Positions 1,322-40,832 of a DNA stretch of 64,000 nucleotides are shown piece after piece (within the stretch, counting starts at the first letter, position 1; each line of letters begins with the position of its first letter). The stretch comes from an uncultured Gammaproteobacteria bacterium. GTDB lineage: Bacteria; Patescibacteriota; Patescibacteriia; UBA9934; CAZDDW01. The DNA is taken from assembly GCA_965231015.1 (NCBI GenBank), contig OZ246408.1:19755-83754 (forward strand). Reading direction: 5' to 3'. Under the pieces are notes generated by a model. That model worked only from the letters and a program-made list of their open reading frames with translations, was not told where the DNA came from and ran no database searches. A program made the position numbers and the translations under genes.

Positions 1322-1397
1322 TGGTGGACCTTAGGAGGCTCGAACTCCTGACCTCTTCCATGCCATGGAAGCGCTCTACCAGCTGAGCTAAAGGCCC
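1322..1397 (-). tRNA. tRNA-Ala (anticodon GGC)
   Basis: 76-nt cloverleaf read on the reverse complement: acceptor GGGCCTT/AAGGTCC with the Ala-identity G3:U70 pair, anticodon loop AU-GGC-AU, T-loop TTCGAGC, encoded CCA. Confidence 0.85.
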
Positions 1398-1471: not shown

Positions 1472-3979
1472 CTATTCAGTCGTCTCTTCAGTAATCTCTT
1501 CCTCAACATCAGGAGTTTCTTCTACGGTCTGACCCTCACTGACGTCTGTAGCCGTTTGCTCACCGGACTCAACCGGCTCTGGGATCTCACCACTGGTCTC
1601 ACCACTCTTTAGCTGATCAAGACGTTGTTGAACCAGCTGATTATCAGGATTCAAAGCCAGTACCTCCTCCACTTGTTCAATGGCCTTATCAATTTCACCG
1701 TTTAGCTCATAGATTGAAGCCAAGAACCAGCGGGCGTTAGAATACGTTGGCACCAAATTGACCACATGTTCGAACATAACCTGAGCGTTGTCGTTGTTTC
1801 CCTGTCGCAAGTAAAGCAATCCGAGCTGGAAAGCAACTCCTACATCCATTTGGTTGTACAAGAACACGCTTTCCATCTTGGTGACCGCTTCATCAAGCTT
1901 GCCCTGTCGTTCAAACACAACGGCCAACTGATAATGCGCCGGAGCGTAATCAGCTTTCAGTTCAATCGCCTTGTCAAAGGCGGTTTCAGCCGCAACCAGG
2001 CTTTCGTCAACCTTGGTTTGAGCGTTATTTGCGGTTTCCTCATCCGGAGACGTGGTTAACTGTCGAGCCGTTTCCGCAATTACAAGATTAACTTTTCCAA
2101 GTTCGGTTTGATATTCAGGATTTACCGGGCTAAGTTCGGTTGCCTTGCTGAAAGACTCAAGGGCAAACTCGTCTGCTCCACCAATAAAGGCAATTACTTC
2201 TCGGTAAATTGAACCGCGTACTGACCAATTCAAGACGTTGTTTGGTCCTAAATCTGTGCTACGTTTAGCTGCGTTTATACTGGCAGCGGTTAAAGCTCGA
2301 ATCAGATTAGCCTGTTCTGTAGTCATCTCCTCTCCGACATTGCCAAGTTCTTCACTTACCCGCAAAAGCAAGGCTTGAGCCAGGTTGCGGTAGTAAATGT
2401 CGTTGTAACGATTGAAAGTTGCGGCCTTGTCAAGTTTGGTCACGATTTCAGTGAGTTCTCCTCCGGCAGCATCAAGTTTAACGGCACGAGCAAAAGCAAT
2501 CTCTCCGGCATAGCGCTGACCGGTCACAAAGAGCACTGACACCACCATAACTGACACCAACACAAACAAGAAACTGAAGGCAAGACCCAGGCGTGGTGAC
2601 TCACTCACAGTAGCTGTTTTAACCTTTCGCATGGCTTCAATGGCCAAAAGTGCAGAAAAGCCGAAGAACAAAAAGGTCAGGGTCATGTTGGAACTGTACA
2701 ATAACATGGCCAACACACTGGTAGCCCAAGGAGCAAACAGAGCAAAACTTAATTTCCACTCTGCATGATTCTTTTCTTTAACAAGTCGGGCTAAAGCCTT
2801 TAAGCCGAGCATGGCTACGAACAAAACCCAAAGAAGAACACCAAGAACTCCAACAGTAGCCAACATGGTCAAGACGTGACTTGAACCGCGGTCAAAACGT
2901 ACGTTCCAGAACATAGTACTGTTGACATCCTGGTTATGATATTTCGCATAGTCGTAAATAAACGTTCCCGGGCCTGAACCAAACAGAGCCGAGGTATCAC
3001 CCAAACTTTGAGTAGCTATGTTCCAAGAGGCTTTCAAGGAAGGTGTCACTTCGGCCGGAAGACCCATGTTAAGTGGTGTCTGTAAAAACAAGAGCAACAG
3101 GGACACCACAAACAGAGCCATCGGCATAATAAAGCGATGTGTTTCTGGGAATTCTTGAGCACGCAAGAGTGAAAAGGTAAACAGAACCAGGATTCCGAAA
3201 ATAAGCGTTACCCAAAGCACCCAATAATCAAGCGAAACCAAAGAAACAAGGGTAGCCAGAGAAATAAAGGTAATCATGATCTTTGTGACCAATCCCTTCC
3301 AACCTCCACGCAATACATCCTCGTCCCCTTTTCCGGCCACAAGCCAAAGCCCGTTTCCGAAAATTGCACTAATTATAGCGAAAATTCCGAATGCGTTTAG
3401 AGTTCCGACCGTGTTGAAACTCTTGGCTACGGCAAAATCAAACGGTAGTGATTGGATACCCAAAATGGATAACAAACCAACCACAATCGCCAAAGTTGAC
3501 CCAATCAGAAACGAGAAAAAGATGCTTCTAAGCACTCGAGCTTCCTGGGTTGCGTTAATAGTAATGTAGAAGAGCACCACAAGAGCGCCTGTTGTCAGGA
3601 AACTGACATACTCTTGAGTTGCTTCACCCACCCAACTGATAAACCCGCCAAGAGAAAGTAGGGTAGAGACTAAAACTGAGACTAAAAACACAAAAGGCAG
3701 CAAATTTAGCCAACCTTTTCGAAAGGTGAATTTTTTCTCAGTAATCATGCCCCCCAACCAGGCCAAAGCGGCCACGGAAGTAAGGATGATAAGCAAGGTC
3801 TGCTTGTTGACTTCCAAAACGTCAAGATTCCACGGCAGGAACCAGACTGGAACAAGCAGGAAGAGAAGGTAAATGCACCAGCGGGTAATGGCACGATAGA
3901 CCTTCGGTGCGTTCAAGGAGCGACTCGCTCGCTTAAGCGCTGAGGCACCGACTCGGGCCCCGGATGAAGCTGTATCCAT
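1472..3979 (-). CDS. O-antigen-ligase-like (Wzy_C-type) polytopic membrane protein with C-terminal TPR repeats
   Basis: 835 aa; ~10 predicted TM helices in the N-terminal 450 aa, then TPR-like repeats (..YNDIYYRNLAQALLL.., ..AHYQLAVVFERQGKLDEA.., ..LGLLYLRQGNNDNA.., ..RWFLASIYELNGEIDKA..) and an acidic tail. Architecture call by pattern only. Confidence 0.55.
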   Translation of the reverse strand: MDTASSGARVGASALKRASRSLNAPKVYRAITRWCIYLLFLLVPVWFLPWNLDVLEVNKQTLLIILTSVAALAWLGGMITEKKFTFRKGWLNLLPFVFLVSVLVSTLLSLGGFISWVGEATQEYVSFLTTGALVVLFYITINATQEARVLRSIFFSFLIGSTLAIVVGLLSILGIQSLPFDFAVAKSFNTVGTLNAFGIFAIISAIFGNGLWLVAGKGDEDVLRGGWKGLVTKIMITFISLATLVSLVSLDYWVLWVTLIFGILVLFTFSLLRAQEFPETHRFIMPMALFVVSLLLLFLQTPLNMGLPAEVTPSLKASWNIATQSLGDTSALFGSGPGTFIYDYAKYHNQDVNSTMFWNVRFDRGSSHVLTMLATVGVLGVLLWVLFVAMLGLKALARLVKEKNHAEWKLSFALFAPWATSVLAMLLYSSNMTLTFLFFGFSALLAIEAMRKVKTATVSESPRLGLAFSFLFVLVSVMVVSVLFVTGQRYAGEIAFARAVKLDAAGGELTEIVTKLDKAATFNRYNDIYYRNLAQALLLRVSEELGNVGEEMTTEQANLIRALTAASINAAKRSTDLGPNNVLNWSVRGSIYREVIAFIGGADEFALESFSKATELSPVNPEYQTELGKVNLVIAETARQLTTSPDEETANNAQTKVDESLVAAETAFDKAIELKADYAPAHYQLAVVFERQGKLDEAVTKMESVFLYNQMDVGVAFQLGLLYLRQGNNDNAQVMFEHVVNLVPTYSNARWFLASIYELNGEIDKAIEQVEEVLALNPDNQLVQQRLDQLKSGETSGEIPEPVESGEQTATDVSEGQTVEETPDVEEEITEETTE

Positions 3980-4065
3980 ACTAGATAAGCTTAAGAATTA
4001 TTAAATTGACTGGCCCCAGTATATCAAATATAGATAGATAAGTTATCCTCAACGGTTCACCAGGC

Positions 4066-4095
4066 TTGACAAGAGGCCTATTTTAGGCCTAAAAT
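4066..4095 (+). promoter_or_regulatory. Sigma70-like promoter (TTGACA -18 nt- TAAAAT) upstream of the MopE-like gene
   Basis: TTGACA at 4066-4071 and TAAAAT at 4090-4095. A strong SD (AAGGAGGG) sits 6 nt before the ATG at 4157. The spacer contains two AGGCCT sites. Confidence 0.45.
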
Positions 4096-4156
4096 ATTCA
4101 GTCTTAGTCCGGCCTATGCTAGGATGTAAATAGAGGCACAAAAAAAGGAGGGCGAC

Positions 4157-5443
4157 ATGATTCGCTTTTTGTCCCTGAGCGCTCTTTCTATCATGCTGGT
4201 AGCCAGCTCCAATCCCGGCGGCTGCATCTACACCTGCTCCGAGTCGGCAGACGACGACACCTCTCCGGAGGACGACGACACCGGAGATGACGACACCTCT
4301 CCGGAGGACGACGACACCGGAGATGACGACACCGCTCCCGGCGACGACGACACGTCCGATGACGACACCTCGGATGACGATACCTCGGATGACGATTCGG
4401 GCGACGACGACACCGGGGGCTGTCCGAACGACTACGACTGCGACGGTACCGTCACTGCTGAGGACTGCGACGACACAAATCCGGATCTGAACAACTGGGA
4501 CTTCGACAACGATGGGTGGACTTCCTGCGACGGCGACTGCGACGACTGGGACGCCTCGCTGGAACTGGACGACGCCGACGCCGACGGCTACACCACCTGC
4601 GAGGGCGACTGCGACGACGCGGACGACCAGGCCTTCCCGGGCAACACCGAAGTCTGCGACGGCGCGGATAACGATTGCGACGGTACCGTGGACGAAGGCT
4701 TCGACGGCGACGGCGACGGCTGGAGCCCCTGCGCCGGCGACTGCAACGACGCCAACCTCTACATCTACCCGGGCGCGCCCGAGATCTGCGACAACCTGGA
4801 CAACGACTGCGACGGATTCCTCGGCTACAACGAGATCGATCACGATGGTGACGGTATCACCATGTGCGACGGCGATTGCGATGGCAACAACGCTGACATC
4901 TTCCCAGGCGCGCCGGAACTGTGTGATGGCGAGGACAACGATTGCGACGGGTCTATTCCGTCTAGCGAGACTACTGACAGCGACGGCGACGGCGCCATCG
5001 ACTGCGCCGACTGCGATCCGGCTGACCCCACCGTCTACCCCGGGGCTCCTGAGCTATGCGACGGCATCGACAATGACTGCGACGGCTCACCGTCCTTGGA
5101 CGAAACAGACCAGGATGGTGATGGTTTGTCGGTTTGTGACGGCGACTGCGACGACACCGACGCCAACGTCTACCCGGGTTACGACTCGGACGGCGATGGT
5201 TGGGATTCGTGCGATGACTGCGATGACACGAATCCGAACATCTACCCCTATGCACCGGAAGTCTGTGACGACGGCATTGATCAGAACTGTGACGGTCAAT
5301 CCGACGAATGGGCTGATGCTGACGGTGACGGTTACAACAACTGCGATGGCGACTGCGACGACTTTGACGCCGGCGCCTATCCCGGCAACATCGAAACTAT
5401 CGGCGACAACATCGACAACGACTGCGATGGTGTGGTCGAATAA
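4157..5443 (+). CDS. Secreted Asp/Cys-rich protein with ~9 tandem MopE-like putative metal-binding motifs (C-x-GDCDD-x-PGAxExCDGxDNDCDG)
   Basis: 428 aa; signal peptide MIRFLSLSALSIMLVASS. N-terminal (S/T)PEDDDTGDDDT low-complexity repeats. Repeated DGDGYxxCxGDCDDxDAxxYPGAPExCDGxDNDCDG units match the 'putative metal-binding motif' family typical of Myxococcota. The gene is strikingly GC-rich (GC3-biased codons gac/ggc/tgc) relative to its neighbours. Confidence 0.65.
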   Translation: MIRFLSLSALSIMLVASSNPGGCIYTCSESADDDTSPEDDDTGDDDTSPEDDDTGDDDTAPGDDDTSDDDTSDDDTSDDDSGDDDTGGCPNDYDCDGTVTAEDCDDTNPDLNNWDFDNDGWTSCDGDCDDWDASLELDDADADGYTTCEGDCDDADDQAFPGNTEVCDGADNDCDGTVDEGFDGDGDGWSPCAGDCNDANLYIYPGAPEICDNLDNDCDGFLGYNEIDHDGDGITMCDGDCDGNNADIFPGAPELCDGEDNDCDGSIPSSETTDSDGDGAIDCADCDPADPTVYPGAPELCDGIDNDCDGSPSLDETDQDGDGLSVCDGDCDDTDANVYPGYDSDGDGWDSCDDCDDTNPNIYPYAPEVCDDGIDQNCDGQSDEWADADGDGYNNCDGDCDDFDAGAYPGNIETIGDNIDNDCDGVVE

Positions 5444-5475
5444 CCCCCTTGGGCGAACTGCCGTTCGCCTCTACT

Positions 5476-5510
5476 GCCCACCGGCACCCCACCGGTGGGC
5501 ACTTTTTTAT
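5476..5510 (+). terminator. Rho-independent terminator (GCCCACCGG-CACCCCA-CCGGTGGGC + T6)
   Basis: Perfect 9-bp GC-rich stem followed by ACTTTTTTATT, 33 nt after the stop of the MopE-like gene. Confidence 0.65.
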
Positions 5511-5546
5511 TCGTGAATTCGTAACCATTCGTAAATTCGTGAACCT
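5508..5546. repeat. Four tandem ATTCGT(G/A)A units (ATTCGTGA ATTCGTAACC ATTCGTAA ATTCGTGAACC)
   Basis: Seen directly in the sequence immediately after the terminator, in the convergent intergenic gap between the MopE-like gene and the giant gene. Confidence 0.4.
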
Positions 5547-5934
5547 CACTGCATTTATGAAACATAAAACGACCAAAGTGGGGTTTTGGCCGTCCTATGT
5601 CATTAGTCGCTCCTCACGAAAATAATGTATGCGTCAGAAGCATGACTCAAAGGCAACTAACACCGTTAGCTACTTTTGAGCCGATATGGGTGCCCGTTTG
5701 GCCCTGTTCTTAGATACTCTTTTGAGGATGAACCGATTAAATTCGAGGAGATTGATTCAAATAGTTTTTGAAGCAATACTTTTGTATTGCTGATAAAATT
5801 TTTGGATCAAGATTTCGAATTTTGGTGGTTCAGACCAAAAACGGTATCTAAAAACAGGGCCTAGACACATGTACAAAGAACGTCGCGACCGGCGCGTCAA
5901 CGAAAGTCGCGGGACTCACCCAAACTGCTTTCAA

Positions 5935-8900
5935 CTACTCGAGCGTTTCTGATAGGGGATCGCTTGTATTATCACTACTGTTCGTTTCATCCCCAGCATT
6001 TGGGGCCACTTGGTCAATTTCATCAACCCCTCCACTTTGGTCAGGGTCTTCAACGGTCTCACCGTCGTCTGCCGGTTCTTCTGCAATTGGGTCAATATCA
6101 TTGATCCCTGCATCCACCTCGGTATCTTCCTCCGATTCTTCCTCGGTTGTTTCTTCTTCAATTGATTCTTCTTCAGGCTCAATAATTTCCTCGGTCTCTG
6201 GGTTCAAATACTTCTCTGGCTCCATATCCTTTCGATAGGCGGTTACAAACCAGTTAAATTCAGTATCAGATGAACTGTCTGCCATAATCGTGAAGCCATC
6301 ATTGTTTTGTTCATTCACATAAAGTTGGACCGGTTCACCAATCGGCATGGCCATAACTCGTACCGGAGCAATGGTTGAAATAATATCGTTAAAGTGAGGA
6401 TCAATCTCTTCAAATTCAATTGTGACTTGACCGCTTGAAAGTTGAGCTGTTCCAGACATGGTTACCGTGGCCTCAAGAGAAAGTTCAGCCTGAACTTCAA
6501 CCTCTTCACCCTGATAGGTCTCAATCACAGCCATAAATGATCCCTTAGTCTTAAAATCACCTTCTGGACTGACTTCCCAATCACCTAGACCGGCAATCTT
6601 ATTTACATTGATAATGTCGTTGGCCTGCATGTATAGACTTCCTCCAAGAGTCAAACTGCCAACATTGGAACCAATACCGCCAAAGCCACTAGCAATATTT
6701 TCGGTACCAGGGGTGGTATCAGATACACCGCCGCCCCAGTAGCCTACATTCACAAAAGCAATAATTGAATCACCACCATCACCGTTATAATTTTCCAAAG
6801 CATTACCCACAATCGGTCCGGCTTCAGTTGCCTTCATGGCGTAACCCGGGGTCGAAGAAGTAGTTAGTGGATCACCCACAGCAATCGGACCATTTTCAAG
6901 ACTAACCTTCACCGGCACTCGTCCAGCCAGAGCGACCGGATAATCTCCTTCAATACTGTCACCTGCTAAGAAGCCGGGCTTGGTTGAAACAATTCCGGCA
7001 ACTAGCCCATCATAAGACTCAGATGAACGTCGGACTTTTTCATCACTTGTATCAAAGACCACGACATCACCAGCTTCAAGCACTTCGTCTGAAGGGAACA
7101 TTTCCGCAAAGTCGTAGCTGCCGGTTGACCAACCACTAGCATTGGTGCGCATCATGTCGCCACCCCAACCTTCTGAGCCATCGTAATAAATATATTTGTC
7201 AGTTTGTAAATCACCGCGGTCGGACGGATACAACCGACCGGCCAGCTGCACATCGCCCTCGGCAGTGATCACTGCAGCACTCGTTCCACCTGAACCACGC
7301 ACGGTCAGCGAAGCATTATCAATTACTAAATTGTCAGTGATCACAGTATCAGTGCCGTCAGTGCCAAGCACTGCTCCGGTATAGTATTCCACATCTACAA
7401 AGGCCACGATGATATCATTTCCAGGATCAGCAATTTGCATAGCCCGCCCAAGTACCATCCCAGCCTCAGTGGCTTTCATGGCGTATCCTGGAGTTGAAGA
7501 AGTGGTTAAATAATCACCGATTTCAATCAAGCCGTTTTCATCGGAAACACGAACCGGTACTCGACCTGACAGTGCGATCGGTGGACTGGTATCCCAACCC
7601 ATCACAAAAGCCGGATCAGTACTAACCACTCCTACCAAACCCGGTTCATAGGTCAATCCACTGCTTCGCAATACATGCTCTGCATTTGCTGAATCTAAGA
7701 CCACAACTTCACCAGCAGACAAAGTAGCATCTGTGGATGGCATGCGCTCAGCCACGTCAAAAGCAGCAGAGTTAAAACTGCCATCAGCATAAGCATTACC
7801 TACGGCTGGAGCTCCTATGTCGGCACAGGTATCAGGGTCGGTTCCGTCGTCATCAATACACAAGATACTACTTCCAAGCTCAACGTCTCCGGCGATGAAC
7901 AGGTCGTCAGAACCGGCAACAGCCGCTAAAGTCTTAGTTACGGCACCACTAGAAATTGTGTGATAGGCGTAAGTATTGGAAACCTGACCGGCATGCAGTG
8001 TTCCAGCAAACATCATCTTGCCCTGATTGGTAAACCGTAAAATTGTTTCCGCAGCCGCGTCATTGCGAACCTTGATCACATCTTCGGCTGATCCGCTCTG
8101 TCCCACATCAATCACCAAAGCCTGCTGGCCCATAGAATTCACTCCGGGATTATCAACAAAATCCTGATAAATATGTAAAGCTGTGGCGTCCCCACCGCCG
8201 GAACCGCCGCCAGAATTTTTAATCCGAACCACTTCTCCCACACTGCCCACTTCATCATCAAGCTGGGCCAAATAAAGCAGTGCATTGCTGGAACCGGCTG
8301 TGTAGTTAGAACTGCCACTATCAACCCGGGTAACTTTTATGCCACTACCAGAGGTAAGCGAATTAGTGCCGATATCCATAACATCTCCGGTAGTAACATC
8401 CGTACCCGTAATGGTTACGCCGTCACTGGCTCCGGCATTGTCAAGATCGAGCTCAAGCTGACCCTGAACGTACAAATCACCATCACCGGTAGCCACGTTG
8501 GCCGTACCGCCGCCGCCGTCATGAATCTGCACATTGCCGTCTTCTGAATAAATAGCGTAGTTATTCGCTCCGCCAGAAGCCGTGGTGTACACGCCGTAGT
8601 TAGGGGTTGTCCCGCTTCCCGTGGCCGTAGCGTAAACCGCATAGTTATTGGTAGCGTTGGATCCGCCTACGCTGGAGTGCACCCCATAGTTAGTGGAGCC
8701 GGTACCACTAACTACATTGCGGTTACCATAATTGGTGGCGCTGGCAACATTAACAAAAGTACTCAAACCTTGATTGGTTCCAGCCCCGGTATCAGACAAG
8801 CGTAAGTAGGCGCCATAGGCTCCGGAAGAAATAGTACCAGCGGTATTTGCAATATCTGCGTTAATTCCATATACGTTAGCAACTGAACCCGCAGCAGAAA

Positions 8901-11900
8901 GGTCAGTGTCAATTTCCAAGCCATAAATGTAATCAACGTTACCGGTATTCGAAAGCGTGGCCTCTGCCTTAATTGCACGCAGATAACTGAGGGCTGCACT
9001 ATCTGAAGCACTGCTGTAATCAGCTACGGCCTGAATCGCACTCATATCGATAGTGGAGGCAGTGGTGCCAGTAAAATCTAAAGTTGAGGAGGTGCCGTAT
9101 AAAGTACGGGCCGCTGTTTGCGCACCGGTAAGAGTCGCATCAAGATCTAAGCCGGTGAAATCGCTGTCAGCATTCAGGGTTTCTGAAACATCTACCACGG
9201 TGTTCGTACTAATAGCACCTGCTGTGCCAGCAGCCAGGTGGCCGGACAGGTTCACGTCATCGCTCAGCTCGAACTGGCTGGCGCCGTTATTCCAGCGCAA
9301 CGACTCGGTGCCGGCGTTGTTAAAGTAGAGATATTCGTCCAGTTCTACATTGCCGGCTACGTCTAAAATCTGGCCCGGAGCACTGGTGCCCAGGCCCACG
9401 TTGCCGTCACTACCGCGCACGAACAGAGCGTTGGCCGCGCCGGTGGCCTGCACCTGGAAATCGACGTCCGCACCGGTGTTGTTCACGACAACGATATCCT
9501 GCGTGCCTTCATCCAGGCTCAACATCGAGACGGCCCCGGCAAAAAAATCAATCTGATTATTCGTGAAACTGAGATAGGTATTAGTGTCCAGATTATGTTC
9601 CAACCTCTCGTCAACACCGATGTCGCCAGCCACTTCTAATTCCGTACTTGGATTATTGGTACCGACACCGACCCGGTCATCCACGGCATCAACAAAGAAC
9701 ATATTGTCATTGGCCGTGCTTTTAATTTGAAAATCTACAGCACTGGCGTTGTCATTGAAAATCATGGCCCCGGTGTTGATATAGGTCACTAGGGCATTAG
9801 TGCCGTCATGGGAAATAGCCACGTGATCAACCTCGCTCGCGGGATCATAAATGCCGAACATTCCGTAATTGCGAACAGTATCACTACCCGGATCCAGCCG
9901 CAGGTCTCCGCCGCCCACAGTGACCAACTCCAAATGCGACCCGGTTGAACTGAACTCCACATAATCATCGGTTTCACCATTCGGCCGCAGCTGCATATTG
10001 CCACTTGATTCAATGAAGTTACTGGAACCATTAATTGTGATAGTGCTGCCTGAAACGATAGTACCGTCCTGATCCACACTGAATTTTACGTCGCCTGTAT
10101 TATCAAAGTCTTCGATCGCTTCAATAAAATAGAAGCTACCTGTATCTTCTTCGTCTGTTTGAAGCGTGAGTAGAGTGTTAGAAAAAGCGGCGTTGTCTCC
10201 ATGAACGGTCACAACGTTTTCATTTGTGGTATCAATAAAGCCTGCATCACCGGCAACCTCCAAATCATAATCCGGTGCATTGGTACCGATTCCGAGCTCG
10301 TCATTAGACGCGTCCCAGAAAAAATTATTTTCTCCGGATAAACCGGAAGCGGTCCAGAACGTCACCTGTCCGGTTGATCCGGTTCCACTAGCAACTGTGT
10401 CATCGATACAAAACTCGGTACCATTATCAAAACAGAATTGATCGTCATTGTCGTCGTACCAAATTTCAGACTCATTAGCTGCAGAGGCAGAATTCTGACC
10501 GGTCCCTAAGTGAATCTGGCCGACTGTTGCGTTAGCCGAGGGGGTAATGAAAATCGGGTTACCTGATTGATTGTTTGTGTCAACAAAATTCACATTTAAT
10601 CCGTGAGCCCCTGAACCGGCAGCGTCAGGTTCATTGGTGAGTAGAATCAACGAACCACTGGAATTTTTTGAATTACCATCTAAAATTGACTGTGTAGTTG
10701 AATCTGACTGAACGAGAATTGAGTGTTGATTGGCCGCTTGCGAAAGATAGATTCCATACGCATTAGAACTGCTTTGGTTTGATAATCGGAAACCGGTTCC
10801 TGAACCACTATTCTCCAAATGAATAACGTCCTGATTCACTGAAGCTAAGGCTTCCAGATTTAACAAGCTTTCTCCTGCCGCGTTCGACAAAATATCAAGG
10901 TCAGCGTCAGGGGTGGTATCACCAATTCCCACATTACCGATTGTAAACACGGCCGCATAGTCGTTGGCGGCAACTGTCATTCCGTAGTCAGTTCCACCGC
11001 TGATGTTAGATAAATCAATATTCAATCCGGTGTTTGTGGCTGTTGAACTGTTAACTCCATCAGCAAAGTTGATATCCAAACCAGTGGTGTTCGCAGTTTG
11101 ATTGCTGTTTAAAATATCCAGGTCAATCTCTTGCATCACAATGGCGGTCGCTCCACCGGATGGATCATTAGCTACATCCAAAATTGCACTTGGTGAACTG
11201 GCTCCAATTCCAACCATATCGGCTGAACCGTCTACAAACAACATATTAGTCTCGTTGTTACTTTCCACTCGGAAATCAACTGAACCACCGCCTTCGTTAA
11301 AGATAGCCGCACCGGTTCCGGCAAGATTAATGTCTGCATTAGCTGCAGAGGTTCCACCCAAGTAGAATTCCTTGGTAGCATTATTGTAGAAAAAGTTGGC
11401 GTTATCTTCAGATAAACCAGAGTTTATAAACACAATTGAACCGTCTGTTAGTCCCGGATTTAAAGTGCCGTAAATGGCACCGTCTACTTCCAAATCGTCT
11501 TCAACGTAAAGGTCGCCCTCGCCAGTGGCAAAATCGACACTGGCCGCACCGTCCCAAATCTGAACGTTGCTTCCCTGGAAGTCAGCGGCCATGGCACTAC
11601 CAGCCCCGGCGTTTGTGACGTCAACCGAAATACCAAAAGCGTCAACCGGTGAGTTAGCGGCCATATCAAGATCAATTCCGTTGCCGGCAATATTTTTTGT
11701 GATTGAAAGCGCGTCTCCCGGACCTGCGTGGGTAATTGCTACACCTGATCCATTATTTGAGTTATCAGTTAAAGAAACCGTGATGCCGTCTCCGGTGCCG
11801 TTGCTGGCGTGAGTCACTGTGATACCGTCAGCGTCATTATTCGGATCAGTCATGTCAAGGTCAATTCCCTCACCACTTCCTGTGTTATTGATCAGAACCG

Positions 11901-14900
11901 CATCCCCTGAACCAGGGTTGCCGATCAAAACGGCATTGGCAGTGCTAGTGGCTTGGGTGTTTACCCGGAAAGCGATTTCGGCCAGGTCGGCCAAAACATC
12001 AAGTCGAGCCCCAGCGGCATTAGTTCCGATGGCAACACGATCATCTCCAGCGTCAACGTAAAACAAGTCGCCGATATTATCACCCTCAATACGCACATCA
12101 AAATCATCTCCGGCCTCATTATAAACTAAAGCATTATTTCCGGTGTCATATCCAATAATGTATTCGTCAGCTGTCGCTGTACCAATGTGAATTGATTCTG
12201 AACCAAGGAAAATATCGGCCCAACGCTGGTCAGCATCACCAAGAGTGTAGGTATCATCTGCGTTAGGGATCAAGTTAGAAATAAATTCTCCGTTGACATC
12301 AATGTCATCAGTGTCAGAGCTTCCGAGCGTAGCATTGTCATCAAACTGAACGTCGCCGTTGTCTACGTGCAAAGCAAGACCGGTTCCGTTGGTGTCGTTG
12401 ACGTAAAGTGCTCCGCCGGCCGCGTTAGTGGTGACTTCAAAAGTGTAATCGGCGGCGTTAGAACCTGTAAACTCGATGGCACTTGAATCAACCGTCACTT
12501 GTCGTCCAGCTCCGGCTCCGCCGTAGTCATAGGCTCCATCAAGAGTCACCCCGGAAGCAGTCACATCTGAAACCAAAGCAATTTCAGACCACGCACCACC
12601 AGTGCGTAACCACAGCTCGCCTTCCGATCCGGTATCAAGCAAATAAAGTGAACCATCATCAGCCGAAGCAATTGGTGGATCAGCTGCACCAACAAAAATA
12701 TCTGCCGTCTCTGCGGCTCCATTATTAGTTAAGCGAATCATTGGTTGATCAGTATTCTCGATTACTGCAGCAATACCAATTGTTGTAGTAGCGTCATCAG
12801 CTCTAAAGTAACCACCATAGCCAGTGGTCATAGCATCAGTTACTTCTCTAACATAACCGTAGACACCATAAGCGGTAGTTATTGCACCAGTTCCATAAGG
12901 ATAAACTTCACCATAAAGTCCGTAAGCGTTAGAAATTGTTCCATTACCCGCACTTGAACGTCCGAATGCTCCAGCAGTGTAATTAACAGTTTGAGCTCCA
13001 ACATCCATTAAAGCGTATCCGGCAGAACCGTAAATTCTTTCTTCTGCCGTGCCTGCCGTGCCTGTAAAATTGGCCTCACCACGAGTTCCTTGGAGTTCAG
13101 TATAATTATCATCAGTGTCTCCTGAAAAATTGGATACTCCGACTGTACCTTGAATATATGTAGCAGCAGTTAAAGTTTGTGTATCGTTGTGAGTACCGAT
13201 AATACTTCTCGATGTTCCCGAGGTAAGAGGTGTTGTTTTAGTTCCTTCAATAGCGTCCCCGGCACCAAGCATGGTTGAAAGTAAACCATCACCCGTCGAA
13301 CCAGTATTATCATTAGTTTGGTTGATATGAATCATGTGACCTGTGAAGAGATCGGCATCATCTACTCGATAAAGATAGATACCGTTTCCACCGGTCAAAT
13401 CTGCCAAGTTGGCAGTAAATGCGTTACCGTTGGTAACTGAATTGGCCGACAAAGTCATGACATCTCCGGTATCGGTTGAACTAATATGAAAGAATGAAAC
13501 CGGAGTGTTGGTTCCAATACCAACCTCATTATCGCCACCGTCCACGAAGAACATATTAGCGTTGCCGTCGGATTCGATGCGGAAATCAGCATCAATACCA
13601 GCCTCGTTAAAAGTTGCCGCTCCTCGAACATCCAGAGTAGCCAAAGGTGAGGCCGTTCCGATTCCAACCCTATCATTGGTCGCATCAATCGAAAGGGTGT
13701 TCGAGTCAAAATTTAATCCGTTCACTCCACCAGAAAGAGTCACAGCGGTGTCGTTAGCAAAAGTCCATGCCGCGGCATTTGAGGTCACGGTATCTCCTGA
13801 TGTGTTTCCAAGATAAACGTCTCCCAACACTTCAAGCTCATCATCGACTTTCAGATCCCCGGCCGCTCCGGAACCATAACTAAAAGCCGCATCTGCTCCA
13901 ACAATGATTGCTTCGGTGTTAGAAAAATATCCGTTGGTTCCATCAAGCCAAAGAGCATCCGAAGTAAGGGCAATGGTTCCGGATTGGTTCGGCAAACTAT
14001 AAGTTCGAGCTCCGTCCAGATTAACAGTTTGTAAAGCTCCAAAGTGGCTATCGCTGTCGTAGAAAGACAGTGAAGTGCTGTTCGTGTCGGTTCCGTCAAA
14101 ACAATCTCCGGTCAAGCAAGAACCCACACTCGTAATGTCACCGGTGGCGCCACCAGTAATGGCGGCATCAAGGTCGTCTAAGACGTCTTGAACGTTAGAG
14201 GCGCTTGAGTTATCAAATTCATCAAACACGCCGATTAAATAGGCACCGGAATCTGTTGCTGAAGTTGACTCACCAGCTGATGTGTCTGAATCTAGGAAAA
14301 GGTTAGTTGAGGTGTTAAGGGTAAGTGTCTCGGTTGCTCCAAGTAAAATGTCGTCCCCAGATGTCGCAGGAGACAGATCTGTACCGGACTGTTGCCAATA
14401 GTTTGTAGTACTAGATGACGAAACACAAACCACCCCTAAACTGTCTCTAAAACAAAGACTGTCTGGGTTGTCAGATGAAGCTCCGGTTTCATACCAAAAA
14501 TCACCCTCAGTTAGACTACTTGGCTCAGCCGAGATTCCGAGCAAGGCTAAATGCGGTTCGGCCGTATTAGCCTGGTTAATCTCAATCCCCGGCATAGCGT
14601 CGCCACTCGGGTTCACAATATCAATCTTGGCTCCAGGTGTGGCCGTTCCGATACCCATCTCGCCATACTCACCATCAATTCCCTCGACCGGAAAAACCAG
14701 AAAGGCATTGGCTTGGCTAATATCGATATCTGAAGAACTACTTGAATCATAACCAAAGGCAAAAGTTTGATCCGCAGATGAATCAAGATTTAACGATCGT
14801 CCAGCAACCCAGCTATTTCTTCCAACCACAGTGTTATAACTACCTCCAGCCACAGTACTGAACTCAGCACTTACCGTATTATTATAACCACCAACAATAG

Positions 14901-17900
14901 TGGCAAAATTACTACCTGTGGTGTCAATTGTATTATCTTCACCTCCACCAATAGCAGAAGATATACCAGCCGAAATGGTATTATCAGCTCCTCCAACAAT
15001 TACACCGTTACGACCAGCCCATCCACCAGTGCCCGTGATATTGTTATTATTACCACCACCAATTGTAGAATACTGACCACCTGGTTGGAATGCACCACCC
15101 TGCGCATCAATCAGGTTATCATCACCACCACCAATTGTAGCCCATCGCGAAGCAGAAGTAACAGAACTTCCAGCATCGATGATATTATTGTCACCTCCAC
15201 CAATAGTGCCATGCATTTCATTGGCTTGGTTAGTGTCACCACCAGCTACTGTAGTGTACTGGTCTTGCGCATAGTTTCCATAACCACCACCCACACTGGC
15301 ATAATCTTCAGTTGCACGGTTATAGGCACCACCACTGATAGTTAAATAGTCTGTTGCGGTAGCAGCAGTTCCAATAGTTGAATTCCAACCTAAATTAATA
15401 TAAGTGTTTGGGTTTGTTCCATTAATAGTGGATCCGGAAGGATCGATCATTAAACCTCGGTTTGGCTCATTGGCTGGATATAAATAATCACTTCCTCCAT
15501 CCTCGGTCCAATAGCCAGTGGTAATATCTGAAACCAAAGCAATTTCAGACCACGCACCACCAGTGCGTAACCACAGCTCGCCTTCCGATCCGGTATCAAG
15601 CAAATAAAGTGAACCATCATCAGCCGAAGCAATTGGTGGATCAGCTGCACCAACAAAAATATCTGCCGTCTCTGCGGCTCCATTATTAGTTAAGCGAATC
15701 ATTGGTTGATCAGTATTCTCGATTACTGCAGCAATACCAATTGTTGTAGTAGCGTCATCAGCTCTAAAGTAACCACCATAGCCAGTGGTCATAGCATCAG
15801 TTACTTCTCTAACATAACCGTAGACACCATAAGCGGTAGTTATTGCACCAGTTCCATAAGGATAAACTTCACCATAAAGTCCGTAAGCGTTAGAAATTGT
15901 TCCATTACCCGCACTTGAACGTCCGAATGCTCCAGCAGTGTAATTAACAGTTTGAGCTCCAACATCCATTAAAGCGTATCCGGCAGAACCGTAAATTCTT
16001 TCTTCTGCCGTGCCTGCCGTGCCTGTAAAATTGGCCTCACCACGAGTTCCTTGGAGTTCAGTATAATTATCATCAGTGTCTCCTGAAAAATTGGATACTC
16101 CGACTGTACCTTGAATATATGTAGCAGCAGTTAAAGTTTGTGTATCGTTGTGAGTACCGATAATACTTCTCGATGTTCCCGAGGTAAGAGGTGTTGTTTT
16201 AGTTCCTTCAATAGCGTCCCCGGCACCAAGCATGGTTGAAAGTAAACCATCACCCGTCGAACCAGTATTATCATTAGTTTGGTTGATATGAATCATGTGA
16301 CCTGTGAAGAGATCGGCATCATCTACTCGATAAAGATAGATACCGTTTCCACCGGTCAAATCTGCCAAGTTGGCAGTAAATGCGTTACCGTTGGTAACTG
16401 AATTGGCCGACAAAGTCATGACATCTCCGGTATCGGTTGAACTAATATGAAAGAATGAAACCGGAGTGTTGGTTCCAATACCAACCTCATTATCGCCACC
16501 GTCCACGAAGAACATATTAGCGTTGCCGTCGGATTCGATGCGGAAATCAGCATCAATACCAGCCTCGTTAAAAGTTGCCGCTCCTCGAACATCCAGAGTA
16601 GCCAAAGGTGAGGCCGTTCCGATTCCAACCCTATCATTGGTCGCATCAATCGAAAGGGTGTTCGAGTCAAAATTTAATCCGTTCACTCCACCAGAAAGAG
16701 TCACAGCGGTGTCGTTAGCAAAAGTCCATGCCGCGGCATTTGAGGTCACGGTATCTCCTGATGTGTTTCCAAGATAAACGTCTCCCAACACTTCAAGCTC
16801 ATCATCGACTTTCAGATCCCCGGCCGCTCCGGAACCATAACTAAAAGCCGCATCTGCTCCAACAATGATTGCTTCGGTGTTAGAAAAATATCCGTTGGTT
16901 CCATCAGTCCAGAGACTAGATCCAATGTCAGAAAGAAATGCAACTGTTCCGGTCCCATCTTGGAAAGTAATGCTATTATCTGATCCGACTGGGTCAGGCA
17001 TGACAAAAATAGTTTCCCACCCATCATCAGTGGCTCCGTCAAAATAAAGCGCGCTGGCTCCTTGAATCGCTCCGGTCACGGTCAGCGCATCGGTCAGGGC
17101 GTCACCCAAATTTACATCATCGTCAAACTGAACGTCGCCGTTGTCTACGTGCAAAGCAAGACCGGTTCCGTTGGTGTCGTTGACGTAAAGTGCTCCGCCG
17201 GCCGCGTTAGTGGTGACTTCAAAAGTGTAATCGGCGGCGTTAGAACCTGTAAACTCGATGGCACTTGAATCAACCGTCACTTGTCGTCCAGCTCCGGCTC
17301 CACCCTGGTCGTAGGCCAAATCCAAAGTATTCCCGGCTCCGGCCACTCCAAGCTGACTCCAGGTGTTAGCGTCATCCGTATTGATATAAATGCGGCCATT
17401 GGTGTAGTCAAGCGCAATAGATCCGCGTGGAGCGGTCAAAGCTCCGTTTGGCGAACCGCCGTAATTGAATATGATGGTTTCATCCGTACCGTCGTTCATA
17501 CTAATAAAGCCACCGTTGTTAGACACCCCGCTCCGAGTCAAATTAATCATGTCTCCACTGGTCAAGGAGGTGGCACTAATCTCTATAACATTGCCTGTGG
17601 TGGTCGAGTTGGAACTAATGGATAGTGAATCTGATGTCACAGCGGTTGTGTCGAGCGACAAAGCTGACCCTTCACCATTTTGATCAATCAAAAGACCGAC
17701 AGACGCGGCACCTTGTTCGACTTCCAATTTTGCTCCCGGGGTGGCTGTCCCAACTCCCACTTGGTCATTGTCAGACTCAACCACCAACACACTACCGTCC
17801 ACTGTAAAATCGTCACCGGCATTGCCGCCGTTTAGGATAACGTCCACGGAGCCGGCTGCGGCAGACACATCGATATCGAACCCGGATGTGGCCGCGGAAG

Positions 17901-36578: not shown

Positions 36579-37139
36579 CTAGCGCGGGAACGGATGCGAC
36601 GGATCCTTGAAGAACACCATCTGAACGCCGTCGAACACGAGCCAGTACTCGTAGAAGACGTTTTCGGTACCCCCTTTTTCCGTATCACTCCAGTAGAACA
36701 CCTTGTGGCCGTGGATGTCCCAATCAGAGTAATCGATCAAGGCCAGGTCGGGAATGTCTGGAAGAGCACACACCTGACCCTTGGCATTACCAAGGTAAAA
36801 ACCGTAGGTACAACCACCCGAGCCACAGGAGCCAACATCGATGTAATCCGCATAGCTGTCTCCGTTCAGATCGACTGCCAGCCGGTGAGAGTACGTGTTC
36901 TGGAACGGGAAAGTAATCAGACGGTTGTCGTCCGGTGGTGGCGGAAGCACTGACTTGGATTCCCAGTTGCACCGGGGCAACTTGTGATTGTTGCTCTCGA
37001 TACTGGTCGTCACCTGGTCCCTGGTCTGACACAGGGCCGGGTTGTCGTGACAGGACTGAGGCTTCATGTCCTGCGCCGTGGCCGGCGTGAGGAGGATGAA
37101 GTTGATGATCTGGGTGAGAAGGATCAGGGTCGGTCGCAT
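36579..37139 (-). CDS. Secreted hypothetical protein (GC-rich island gene)
   Basis: Start re-assigned to MRPTLILLTQIINFILLTPATAQ (signal peptide). Cys-rich, with no known domain. GC content rises sharply here relative to upstream DNA. Confidence 0.5.
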   Translation of the reverse strand: MRPTLILLTQIINFILLTPATAQDMKPQSCHDNPALCQTRDQVTTSIESNNHKLPRCNWESKSVLPPPPDDNRLITFPFQNTYSHRLAVDLNGDSYADYIDVGSCGSGGCTYGFYLGNAKGQVCALPDIPDLALIDYSDWDIHGHKVFYWSDTEKGGTENVFYEYWLVFDGVQMVFFKDPSHPFPR

Positions 37140-37350
37140 GTCTTGCTCCTTTCGCGACAACCCAAACTACCATCTTCTGCCTAAATTGTCAACCAATAAA
37201 AAACGAGTCGCATCCGGAGATACGACCCTTGGAAGGCTGTGTCGGTGTCGAGTGAGACGCTAACGATTTGATAGTCAGCAAAGAGCAAGAGCACAGCAGC
37301 AGCTGCGAAGATCAGGAGGGACACGGCAAAACCGTGACCCTGGATCCACT

Positions 37351-38346
37351 TTACAGATCACCTCCTTTTACTTCGAGCCATGCTGTGAAAGTGTTGTAAA
37401 CGAGGTAAAGATCGACCTCTTCTTCCCAATCTGATCCTATCTCGTTTGACCACTCTTCCTTTGGTGTGGCACACACTCGAACTCCGTCGTCGAGGTAGGG
37501 CGCTTCCAAACCGTGGAAGTGAAGACCAAAGTTTGATGGTGCGTAAAAGGTGTCGCCACGACTGGTCCCACCCCAAACAGCGTATTGCTCACCCGGGAAC
37601 GAAACGTAGGGTCCACGCTCCTCGTACCACCCGACTTCCGCATCGGTCGCAATAGACTCGTTTTCAAGTCGTGCCCAGCACGAACGCACAGCAAAGTCGT
37701 GTACCCCGTAGGGACTGACGCAGGTGTCGAAGGTCCCGAGTCTTATTTCCAAGTTCATGTCATCCGGTTCACACATGCCGTGGATGTGGTCCTCAGCGTC
37801 GTACGGTTGTCGCCAATTGTCAGCTCCGGCAGAAGCCAGCAACAGTTCGCTCACCGTGCAAAGCCGGCGGCCATAAAGACCAACTCGCTCTTCGAAGTCC
37901 ACGATAGACGCGAGACTCAACCCGTCGTGTGGCCAGTACTCGCCAATTCGATTCGGAAACGGATACTTAGCGATACAAAATGAATCCAGCTGCATTTCGC
38001 GTTCAGCTATCACCAAGTGTGAGTAGTACTGGCTCAAAATATCGCTATCCCACTCACCAAGAGTAAACGTTCCGCCGTCGATCAACACCATGCCATCAGG
38101 ACAGGTTCCGATCGGCTCAATCGAGTCGTCATCATCCCCGGTTGTATCATCGTCGCCAGCAGAGGTTTCATCTTCGTCATCGACCTCCACCGAATCACAA
38201 CACAGAGTCGTGCAGATTAGTAGGAAAAAGAACCAGATCCGAGTGTACTTGAACACTCTTCCACCTCCAAGAACAGGATAATAAGGTGAAAAATATATTT
38301 TGTCAACCAAAAAACCTCGAAACAATTTCGAGGTCTTGTGGTACAC
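37351..38346 (-). CDS. Secreted protein with FGE-sulfatase/SUMF1-like domain (putative lipoprotein)
   Basis: 331 aa; hydrophobic N-terminus ending in ..LCC.., acidic DDDTTGDDDD linker, then ..CPDGMVLIDGGTFTLGE.. and a ..WGGTSRGD.. motif resembling the formylglycine-generating-enzyme fold. The annotated 5' end overlaps the tRNA by 8 nt, so the true start is uncertain. Confidence 0.45.
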   Translation of the reverse strand: MYHKTSKLFRGFLVDKIYFSPYYPVLGGGRVFKYTRIWFFFLLICTTLCCDSVEVDDEDETSAGDDDTTGDDDDSIEPIGTCPDGMVLIDGGTFTLGEWDSDILSQYYSHLVIAEREMQLDSFCIAKYPFPNRIGEYWPHDGLSLASIVDFEERVGLYGRRLCTVSELLLASAGADNWRQPYDAEDHIHGMCEPDDMNLEIRLGTFDTCVSPYGVHDFAVRSCWARLENESIATDAEVGWYEERGPYVSFPGEQYAVWGGTSRGDTFYAPSNFGLHFHGLEAPYLDDGVRVCATPKEEWSNEIGSDWEEEVDLYLVYNTFTAWLEVKGGDL

Positions 38347-38413
38347 CCGGAGGGATTCGAACCCCCAACCAAGAGCTTAGAACGCTCCTGCTCTTCCGTT
38401 GAGCTACGGGTGC
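38339..38413 (-). tRNA. tRNA-Arg (anticodon TCT)
   Basis: 75-nt cloverleaf on the reverse complement: acceptor GCACCCG/CGGGTGT, D-arm GCTC-AACGGAA-GAGC, anticodon arm GGAGC-GTTCTAA-GCTCT, T-arm GGGGG-TTCGAAT-CCCTC, discriminator A, CCA. Confidence 0.8.
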
Positions 38414-38475
38414 AAGTAACAAATATTAGCATAAAAACCCGGTTTCGTCAACCGAAACCCGGTTCTCTCTACCTT

Positions 38476-39420: not shown

Positions 39421-39506
39421 AGCTCTTACATTATACGACACATTGACCAAAAACCAAATTCTTGGTAAGAAGAAACCTCATCAACCAACCACCAAGGAGG
39501 AATCCG

Positions 39507-40661: not shown

Positions 40662-40832
40662 GATTACAACAGGTCCTGTCCACGCCGCACCCAAAAAAGG
40701 TGTGGCCTTCTTTTTGCCTAATTTTAGTCAAAGCGTTCCGAATCGGGGTTGACAATTTCGCTAAAATATGATATAAAAATCGGTCATTTTGGCTACCTAT
40801 ACTTGTATAAAATAAGAAAGGAGGGCCGCCAA

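Follow-up and report, generated by a model that had tools for sequence, protein, structure and literature searches.

The coding sequence at 4157..5443 (+) of the window (the whole stretch of DNA that was analysed, 64,000 nucleotides) encodes a predicted secreted, acidic protein with MopE-type repeats, and its codon usage departs strongly from that of the other genes. From the sequence comparisons, we read this gene as an old, partly ameliorated acquisition that was later lost once, foreign high-GC origin being the best reading of its composition. We favour, with moderate confidence, a scenario in which the cassette came from a high-GC bacterium into an Uhrbacteria-like ancestor, has been inherited vertically since, and encodes a secreted Ca2+-chelating acidic surface protein.

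The cassette and the encoded protein

The following features were identified in the intergenic stretch that separates the gene for a giant surface protein from that for a TPR membrane protein.

4053..5566, + strand: segment with the entire cassette (promoter-like site, gene, terminator), missing in relative L093 (blastn)
4066..4095, + strand: predicted promoter-like site TTGACA-18-TAAAAT, a consensus match only (11/12 matches)
4147..4151, + strand: Shine-Dalgarno sequence GGAGG, 5 nt upstream of the ATG, read from the sequence
4157..5443, + strand: coding sequence, 428 aa and a stop codon, GC about 0.615, GC3 0.77
4157..4249, + strand: N-terminal 31 residues MIRFLSLSALSIMLVASSNPGGCIYTCSESA, by inspection a segment resembling a Sec-type signal (hydrophobic core after a positive n-region), then two Cys
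4250..4420, + strand: acidic Asp/Thr-rich linker of the form (DDDT[SG]PE/GDDDT)n, residues 32-88
4430..5440, + strand: nine MopE-type units, residues 92-428, six long with four Cys each and three short half-units
5475..5510, + strand: intrinsic-terminator-like hairpin (10 bp, 8 G-C pairs), then a T-run, both lying in 5475-5501

As a promoter-like site, a ribosome-binding site and a terminator are all present, the open reading frame is a genuine gene, as had been assumed, and, judging from these signals, it is a self-contained cassette. Two ORFs overlapping it, 4049-4843 (-) and 4512-5516 (+), were not accepted as genes and were taken for by-products of the GC-rich repeats.

The original prediction of about nine MopE-like repeats was borne out. 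The PF11617 match is far above the cut-off (166.8 bits vs 27, E = 1e-49) and covers six stretches, or seven when the repeat region is searched alone, while manual segmentation yields nine units: six long (42-46 aa) and three short (23-25 aa). The unit consensus is DxDGDGxxxCxGDCDDxDxxxYPGAxExCDGxDNDCDG, and when 19 units from the window and its relatives are aligned, D1, D3, D5, C10, D13, C14, D33 and C36 never vary. The units of the gene are only 61-80% identical to each other at the DNA level, and therefore are old. The linker is made of a tandemly repeated 36-nt unit (88% matches), two 27-nt copies being identical. In the structure model the linker is disordered (pLDDT below 50), and the repeat region has almost no helix or strand, with pLDDT of 57-78 over the first units and mostly 85-97 from approximately residue 140.

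The protein is 29% Asp, and its mature form contains 143 D+E, no K+R, 32 Cys and a single His. Secretion, also claimed originally, stands as a prediction, as the N-terminal hydrophobic segment was seen by eye only; the N-termini of the counterparts in relatives are comparable on inspection, those of L094 and L095 having A-x-A-like sites (ASA and AVA, respectively). A lipoprotein identity was considered and rejected: on inspection Cys23 is preceded by P-G-G, and PGG|C is not a canonical lipobox, [LVI][ASTVI][GAS]C, while the relatives have A-x-A-type sites.

With 27,572 cluster representatives matching at E<=1e-3, PF11617 is a very large known family, and the protein is a fairly ordinary member of it. 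No homologue more than 60% identical was found among 1.8 billion cluster representatives. Identities up to this level are background for the repeat family, and hence no donor can be named. No exact copy of the protein turned up in a collection of 15 billion proteins, presumably as a different start was called there.

Codon usage and the same locus in relatives

The GC3 of the gene is 0.771, compared to a mean of 0.435 (sd 0.046, maximum 0.521) in the 24 other genes of the window (z = 7.3), and GAC/(GAC+GAT) is 0.77 vs approximately 0.41. The reported GC3 bias, including that towards gac codons, thus was confirmed, and amino-acid content was rejected as its driver: the same protein re-encoded in host codons has a GC3 of only 0.412 (5000 simulations, sd 0.023, maximum 0.495) and a total GC of 0.494, vs the observed total of about 0.616, and thus amino-acid content accounts for little of the excess. 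The host genome, described as AT-rich, is only moderately so (approximately 46% GC).

Nearly all amino-acid classes are shifted to G/C-ending codons. The shift is greatest for NNY codons, with a C fraction of 0.71-0.80 vs 0.29-0.44, whereas Glu is shifted weakly (as is Gly in relatives L087 and L095); four-fold third positions are intermediate between the host and the 70%-GC homologues. The giant surface-protein gene (9.9% Asp) is unshifted, with a GAC fraction of 0.39, as are further Asp-rich surface genes of the window. GC3 is 0.415 for trigger factor and 0.406 for PNPase, usually well-expressed housekeeping genes. A gene for a non-repeat, non-acidic membrane protein (58348-58980) also has a high GC3, 0.73.

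The range of sliding-window GC3 within the gene is significant in a permutation test (p = 0.006), and codons 121-220 (4517..4816, +) have a GC3 of 0.92 vs 0.73 in the remainder (Fisher p = 2e-5); thus, the composition inside the gene is mosaic. Retention of such a GC-rich block does not sit easily with an old transfer.

The YchF neighbours of the window organism belong to Patescibacteria / Ca. Uhrbacteria, which places it near the latter; its source contig measures 1,002,985 bp. We compared three relatives with the gene (L087, L094, L095) and two without it, the closest relative L093 and the outgroup L096. The neighbouring TPR protein is 70-72% identical between the window and the three carriers, and the divergence at four-fold sites, K4, is 1.2-1.9, synonymous sites being near-saturated. 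In all three the order is giant (+), MopE gene (-), TPR (+), position and orientation being as in the window, and the proteins have the same architecture (signal, two Cys, D/T linker, repeats). The 5' regions of all four genes have in common a TTGACA block and a downstream TA(G/C/A)GAT(A/G) block. L087 and L095, the closest pair, are collinear (one HSP of 568 bits, the next of 161). MopE-type proteins among the relatives range in size from 288 to 918 aa. The counterparts are 43-45% identical to the window protein, no closer than unrelated family members (up to 60%), an observation that speaks against an old transfer.

The counterparts have a GC3 of 0.70 (L087), 0.75 (L094) and 0.65 (L095), their neighbours 0.34-0.53. 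Over all carriers the gene has a GC3 of 0.65-0.77 vs 0.31-0.53 for the host, and the offset in the four lineages is nearly constant (+0.25 to +0.33), following the host GC3. A crude estimate of neutral amelioration from K4 of 1.2-1.9 predicts a GC3 of about 0.5-0.65, and hence drift alone underpredicts the retained bias, again at odds with an old transfer.

In the outgroup (TPR 55% identical) the syntenic site is only a 79-nt gap with no gene. L093 (95%) has approximately 150 unrelated AT-rich nt in place of 4053-5566, flanked by blastn matches to 1473-4000 (83% identity) and 5560-6027 (86%); a short motif common to L093 and the window, AAGTTATCCTCAA, ends at 4052. No integrase, tRNA or direct repeat was found within or at the borders of 4053-5566, which, with no donor identified, also counts against an old transfer. 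A phage search gave no match and a plasmid search only three weak megaplasmid matches. Rfam yielded nothing in the conserved spacer 5567-5934 beyond chance miRNA-hairpin matches, and scans of metagenome contigs with the TPR neighbour, used both as a single protein and as an alignment, turned up no relative.

Outside the clade, the best species-genome matches are MAGs of 68-73% GC, which carry the labels Myxococcota, Deltaproteobacteria or, with doubt, Rickettsiales, and the homologues in such genomes have, like their hosts, a GC3 of 0.9-0.99; the top match, P0001, is on a 71% GC non-CPR contig and has a GC3 of 0.99. In low-GC Bacteroidota the family members have a GC3 of 0.14-0.32, and thus the family does not need GC-rich codons. 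MopE genes far above their host were observed in another Patescibacteria MAG, L013 (GC3 0.91), and in Saprospiraceae L019 (0.67) and L055 (0.74).

Origin of the cassette

Most likely, the cassette would have entered the giant/TPR intergenic space from a high-GC bacterium whose composition was Myxococcota-like. The entry would date to the ancestor shared by a clade of Uhrbacteria-like Patescibacteria, and would have been followed by vertical inheritance with fast evolution by unit gain and loss, by only partial amelioration, and by loss in at least one close lineage. The originally proposed acquisition from a high-GC donor is retained as the best reading, given the absence in the outgroup, the high-GC relatives and the intermediate third positions, though not to the point of a donor being named. 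If, vice versa, the gene had simply been inherited with a common codon regime, close relatives should share the bias. The three counterparts come near to this pattern. The notion of a recent island had to be abandoned, as counterparts in the same position and with the same bias are present in long-diverged relatives. Thus, a sharp GC3 jump alone does not indicate a recent island.

Three other variants were considered. If the giant/TPR intergenic site is a hot spot, with independent gains or partial recombination replacement from high-GC neighbours or hosts, high GC3 would be a sign of youth. Such repeated or recent transfer, which we consider unlikely, would agree with the absence of the gene in the closest relative, with the donor-like GC3 of the 100-codon block and with the excess of GC3 over the neutral estimate, and the genes of L013, L019 and L055 suggest that the family is transfer-prone. 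Single units also match non-CPR proteins better (70-80%) than CPR counterparts (57-69%), in a comparison set pre-selected from thousands of matches for similarity to the query and with repeats that converge on the consensus. However, four lineages share the position, the orientation, the N-terminal architecture and the blocks of the 5' region, L087 and L095 are collinear, and a single gain with one loss requires fewer events than three gains would. Moreover, the site has no integrase, tRNA or repeat, no homologue exceeds 60% among the 1.8 billion representatives, and the GC3 of 0.65-0.77 is well under that of the candidate donors.

Alternatively, G/C-ending codons could be actively maintained in this gene, be it foreign or not, because C-ending NNY codons are selected for in so Asp-rich a protein, or through GC-biased gene conversion among the repeats. 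The constant offset in four lineages at such divergence, which follows the host GC3, is what would be expected in this case, as are the prominent NNY shift and the weak shifts of Glu and, in L087 and L095, of Gly; the same D/T linker also occurs in the secreted products of several further GC-rich genes of the clade. On the other hand, the same family has a low, host-like GC3 in low-GC Bacteroidota, trigger factor and PNPase are unbiased, the Asp-rich giant surface protein is unshifted, G-ending and four-fold codons are shifted too, and the gene at 58348-58980 is GC3-rich while being neither repetitive nor acidic. Given the divergence of the units, recent conversion among them is not evident. 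Hence we regard a gene-specific codon regime, too, as a minor possibility. The third variant, an assembly chimera or a high-GC fragment wrongly binned into a CPR contig, would account for the sharp compositional jump and has a parallel in the GC-rich block of L013, which sits at a contig end, but is very improbable, as native genes flank the gene on either side within a 1.0 Mb contig, and the arrangement recurs, with common 5' blocks, in three further assemblies that are independent and differ in source.

If the old acquisition is accepted, Patescibacteria with reduced genomes harbour and retain foreign genes for surface proteins beside giant surface proteins, which is relevant to the way in which these presumed episymbionts assemble their cell surface, and the stable GC3 offset between lineages is a small testable case for the speed of amelioration of acquired genes. 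A far-reaching extension, which we rate as rather improbable, is that a marine Patescibacteria clade keeps a foreign-looking high-GC3 set for secreted polyanionic Cys-rich proteins (the MopE-type gene, the D/T-linker FGE-like proteins and the genes at 36.5-43 kb), maybe from the bacteria these episymbionts live on, with GC-rich codons actively maintained rather than decaying at a divergence where synonymous sites are saturated. If true, this set could point to the host lineage (approximately 70% GC, Myxococcota-like) and would exemplify genes that resist amelioration over long periods.

Metal binding and comparison with known systems

The Pfam name of the family, Cu-binding_MopE, does not imply copper binding, and PF11617 covers only a small part of MopE/CorA and lacks specificity (PMC6189053). 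A single unit aligns with MopE* (PDB 2VOV) over residues 3-46, with E = 3e-5 for the protein and 1e-7 for the unit profile, and the PDB match is confined to these residues. The matched region is invisible in the crystal, and the Cu(I) site is formed by His/His/kynurenine, the latter derived from Trp (PMC3423442). The copper-binding label of the original prediction therefore does not hold: the motif matches outside the Cu(I) site, and the mature protein has one His. Thus, copper binding by the protein is unsupported and, on sequence grounds, the protein is not a MopE-like copper chaperone. Binding of Ca2+ seems more likely than that of copper. After Sec export, each long unit probably would fold around two disulfides, and the DxDxDG and DNDCDG loops would chelate Ca2+, forming rigid polyanionic 'beads on a string'. 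Beside the neighbouring giant, fn3 and CarboxypepD_reg proteins, such a protein may have a surface role, e.g. in adhesion or in envelope or matrix structure.

With MopE* of Methylococcus capsulatus, a secreted Cu-binding protein stabilised by Ca2+ (PMC3423442), the window protein shares only the one-unit match and has no match to the core with the Cu(I) site. No ordered solved structure of the MopE-type motif was found among the PDB matches. The top Foldseek matches of the model are not significant, with TM-scores of approximately 0.1: 5wtl (E = 5.7e-3), the periplasmic portion of Capnocytophaga OmpA, which we take to contain thrombospondin type-3 repeats, and 2rhp (E = 1.4), thrombospondin-1. 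The type-3 repeats of thrombospondin-1/COMP and the window units both have Asp-rich DxDxDG-type loops, interspersed disulfides (predicted ones in the window units) and no regular secondary structure, but the Cys spacing differs and Pfam TSP_3 (PF02412) gives no match in the repeat region at E<=1; hence, this is resemblance, not membership. A segment of acyloxyacyl hydrolase (AOAH), possibly a Ca2+ site, also resembles the motif weakly (profile E = 0.013-0.044; local Foldseek match of 2.4 Å over 32 columns).

PF11617 proteins, annotated as 'MopE-related protein' or 'putative metal-binding motif-containing protein', are frequent in Myxococcota and Bacteroidota. The window protein shares with them the four-Cys Asp-rich unit and the usual layout, seen for instance in P0001, of a signal peptide, a D-rich linker and units in tandem. 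Unlike many of them, it has no extra domain or C-terminal anchor (MYXO-CTERM, lectin, PKD or similar); set against the family, it is also distinguished by a mature form without any Lys or Arg, and, unlike other cases, by a host with an approximately 1 Mb Patescibacteria genome and a GC3 much lower than that of the gene.

Acquired genes that are partly adapted to the host composition are commonly described in the framework of Lawrence-Ochman amelioration. The gene differs from such cases in having no mobility genes, tRNA or flanking repeats, and in keeping its bias across near-saturated synonymous divergence. It resembles them in that its third positions are atypical, lying between the putative donor class and the host, and in its patchy distribution among relatives.

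Repeat architecture and codon usage of the gene

The gene under study and its 428-aa product comprise the following elements.

4157..5443 (+), open reading frame encoding 428 aa
4066-4095 (+), promoter-like site TTGACA-18-TAAAAT, a consensus-type match
5 nt 5' of the ATG (+), putative ribosome-binding site GGAGG, read from the sequence
5475-5501 (+), strong hairpin with a T-run, 3' of the gene
Residues 1-31, signal-like N-terminus, then two Cys (putative signal)
Residues 32-88, acidic Asp/Thr-rich linker with a 36-nt tandem repeat, of which two identical 27-nt copies remain
Residues 92-428, nine MopE units, six long (42-46 aa, four Cys) and three short half-units

The predicted MopE-like repeats were confirmed by a Pfam scan, where PF11617 (Cu-binding_MopE, 'putative metal-binding motif') matched the protein in six stretches (E=1e-49), or seven when the repeat region was scanned by itself; no NCBIfam model matched. 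The unit consensus is DxDGDGxxxCxGDCDDxDxxxYPGAxExCDGxDNDCDG. As the DNA copies of the units are just 61-80% identical, the array is old; the linker, judging by its nucleotide sequence, is a recent expansion. The mature protein contains 143 Asp and Glu, 32 Cys and one His, and is devoid of Lys and Arg.

The atypical, GC3-biased codon usage noted originally is equally evident: the GC content of third codon positions (GC3) is 0.771, compared to 0.435±0.046 in 24 other genes of the window (z=7.3), and when the protein was redrawn with host codon usage (5000 draws), GC3 was 0.412 and at most 0.495. The total GC content is 0.616, versus 0.494 for the host-codon re-encoding. G/C-ending codons are raised in nearly all amino-acid classes, the third bases at 4-fold sites being A.07, C.50, G.24, T.20, versus A.24, C.23, G.18, T.35 in the host. 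Other Asp-rich surface genes of the window show no codon shift, an example being the adjacent giant gene, whose 4559-aa surface protein contains 9.9% Asp and whose GAC fraction is 0.39. The conserved, usually well-expressed housekeeping genes for trigger factor (GC3 0.415) and PNPase (0.406) are also unshifted. Elsewhere in the window, a 210-aa Trp-rich multi-pass membrane protein (58348-58980(-)), neither acidic nor repetitive and matching no Pfam family, is encoded with GC3 0.73.

The locus in the host and its relatives

The gene content of the window (PolA, PNPase, trigger factor, H+-PPase, RmuC, XerC-like), drawn from a contig of 1,002,985 bp, fits a Patescibacteria (CPR) genome encoding large surface proteins. 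Proteins named Ca. Uhrbacteria or Patescibacteria share 64-69% identity with its YchF, and metagenomic relatives up to 74-89%. The surface genes around the gene under study encode the giant protein, an fn3/CarboxypepD_reg protein and a TPR membrane protein; tRNA-Ala(GGC) (1322-1397(-)) is situated between the YchF and TPR genes. The giant gene (5935-19614(-)) contains an internal duplication (12560-12859 and 15521-15820, 99% identical, 2961 nt apart), with about 500 aa repeated verbatim in the translation, which could be a recent event or an assembly issue.

Relatives were found via YchF and the adjacent TPR protein, and six syntenic loci were read.

Relatives at the same site (locus; source; TPR identity to the window; gene at the site)
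L087; GCA_964480695.1; 70%; 587 aa, GC3 0.70
L094; SRR20820740; 72%; 288 aa, GC3 0.75
L095; ERZ23499038; 70%; 918 aa with an extra C-terminal domain, GC3 0.65
L093; SRR28370467; 95% aa, 83% nt; none
L096; GCA_947084965.1; 55%; none, 79-nt gap

The gene of L087, L094 and L095 has precisely the placement seen in the window, between the giant and TPR genes and on the opposite strand, and its product likewise runs from a signal through two Cys and a D/T linker to MopE units, while the neighbouring genes have GC3 of 0.31-0.53. As this arrangement recurs in four independent assemblies, contig chimerism is ruled out. Common to the 5' regions of all four cassettes are the TTGACA box, a TA(G/C/A)GAT(A/G) block and the ribosome-binding site, which fall within the segment missing from L093, where approximately 150 AT-rich bases replace positions 4053-5566 and no gene remnant was found. 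With L096 as the more distant outgroup, the most parsimonious history is one gain after the L096 split, followed by one loss in L093.

The 4-fold-site divergence (K4) of the TPR gene between the window and L087, L094 and L095 is 1.5, 1.2 and 1.9, respectively, which is near saturation; it is 0.78 between the window and L093, and 1.0 between L087 and L095. In the latter, the closest gene-bearing pair, the MopE proteins are collinear (one dominant HSP of 568 bits vs 161 for the next) and 48% identical, compared to 84% for the TPR proteins; hence, the MopE gene is fast-evolving. For this reason the window protein, 43-45% identical to its positional counterparts, is no closer to them than to the family at large.

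In two of the relatives, L083 and L086 (YchF 81-84% identical), the genes after YchF encode a methyltransferase, several ~320-aa proteins, an fn3 and a CarboxypepD_reg protein; thus, their surface-gene cluster is rearranged relative to the window. L083 (YchF 84%) and L093 (TPR 95%) come from one sample, SRR28370467.

The conserved spacer at 5567-5934 contains a near-perfect hairpin of ~170 nt (5690-5870; MFE -69.1 kcal/mol, z=-11.4 vs shuffles). The non-coding spacer around it is 86% identical to L093, whereas 48.5% of the 4-fold sites in the neighbouring gene differ; the hairpin is apparently absent from L087, L094 and L095, as the spacers there are shorter. Candidate interpretations are a MITE-like element and a structured RNA; Rfam yielded no family, only chance miRNA-precursor matches.

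Origin and persistence of the GC-rich codons

The gene belongs to a known, very large family; its host is unusual. Among 1.84 billion cluster representatives there were 27,572 matches at E<=1e-3 and 3,282 at E<=1e-30, and neither this set nor 5.8 billion proteins contained a homologue more than 60% identical. The best loci among GTDB species genomes belong to MAGs of 68-73% GC that carry the labels Myxococcota, Deltaproteobacteria or 'uncultured Rickettsiales' (the last of these being doubtful at such GC), where MopE-type genes have host-like GC3 of 0.83-0.99. The top protein match is encoded with GC3 0.99 on a contig of 71% GC, where its neighbours are queG and a gene for a PLP-dependent enzyme. 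Conversely, the family members in four low-GC Bacteroidota loci (L004, L057, L061, L072) have GC3 of 0.14-0.32, matching their hosts; thus, high GC3 is not required by the protein family. The composition of CPR MopE genes is intermediate between the high-GC class and the CPR hosts, which fits a partly ameliorated import. Similar GC3 excess was observed in the Patescibacteria MAG L013 (GC3 0.91) and two Saprospiraceae loci (L019, L055). In L013 (JAHJKD010000030.1, ~5200-10944), AT-rich CPR-like genes switch to a GC-rich block of MopE-type and acidic genes (706-aa and 285-aa ORFs and the matched gene at the contig end) that reaches the contig end; the explanation is either a transfer of younger date or contig chimerism.

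The predicted acquisition from a high-GC donor therefore stands in part. Given the intermediate composition and the GC-rich genomes of the homologues, a foreign high-GC origin is likely, the event being ancient and common to L087, L094 and L095; none of the homologues, all at 60% identity or below, singles out a donor lineage. A phage search gave no match, a plasmid search gave three weak ones only, to Bacteroidota megaplasmids, and no integrase, tRNA or direct repeat was found at the gene borders.

A simple ancient transfer ranks above three alternatives: some active maintenance of the GC-rich codons (selection favouring C-ending codons, or biased conversion); subsequent recombination with high-GC alleles; or a transfer younger than the clade root. 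All three draw on the long persistence of the bias, the single less ordinary aspect of this gene. A back-of-envelope neutral estimate from the TPR K4 (deviation decaying as exp(-1.5k), k ~0.6-0.95 substitutions per 4-fold site per lineage, donor GC3 assumed ~0.95) yields a present GC3 of ~0.5-0.65, exceeded by the observed 0.65-0.77; the GC3 offset is nearly constant over the four lineages, tracking host GC3; and codons 121-220 retain GC3 of 0.92 vs 0.73 elsewhere in the gene (p=2e-5).

The grouping of this gene with a second island at 36.5-43 kb is supported by GC3 (0.54-0.73), by several predicted secreted acidic proteins, by one gene of the region with a single MopE unit, and by a D/T-linker homologue. 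The latter, 37351-38346(-), is distantly homologous (25% identity, E=3e-12) to L087 8209-9324(-); both are GC-rich, with a signal-like segment and an acidic D/T linker, and occupy differing genomic positions. The L087 gene adjoins the TPR gene, and its linker motif DDDTTPGDDDTTPTDDDD is identical to that of the L087 MopE gene. An N-terminal Cys-rich domain is common to the proteins of 39462-40661 and 40749-42806. The following pair is flanked on both sides by GC3-rich genes (36579-42806) whose products are secreted acidic proteins.

38339-38413, tRNA-Arg(TCT), mid-region, directly beside the XerC-like gene
38476-39450, XerC-like tyrosine recombinase of native composition (GC3 0.44)

Possible role of the MopE units

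The AlphaFold2 model (70-sequence alignment) contains essentially no helix or strand, with pLDDT mostly 85-97 from approximately residue 140, 57-78 over the first units and <50 for the signal and linker. A Foldseek search of the PDB gave nothing significant; the leading echoes, all weak, were Capnocytophaga OmpA in its periplasmic portion (5wtl, E=5.7e-3), thrombospondin-1 (E=1.4) and short local matches to acyloxyacyl hydrolase, whose segment DCNDSD..YPG...D.NCNG also matched the unit profile (E=0.013-0.044). As a working model derived from composition and resemblance, the protein would be Sec-exported as a polyanion, and its units, as small disulfide-stapled Ca2+-chelating knots, would together build a stiff, acidic rod located on the cell surface or close to it, beside the other surface proteins of the locus.

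The Cu-binding label of the original prediction is not supported, and the Pfam name is misleading for this protein. PF11617 covers just a small, unspecific part of MopE/CorA (PMC6189053), and the alignment of the motif to MopE* (2VOV) is confined to residues 3-46. MopE* is stabilised by Ca2+; in its crystal these 46 residues are invisible, and the Cu(I) site lies elsewhere (PMC3423442). Since there is no Met past the signal segment, the Cys are probably disulfide-bonded outside the cell and His is so scarce, a MopE-like copper site is absent: MopE* forms its Cu(I) site from two His and a kynurenine (PMC3423442), whereas the protein described here has a single His.
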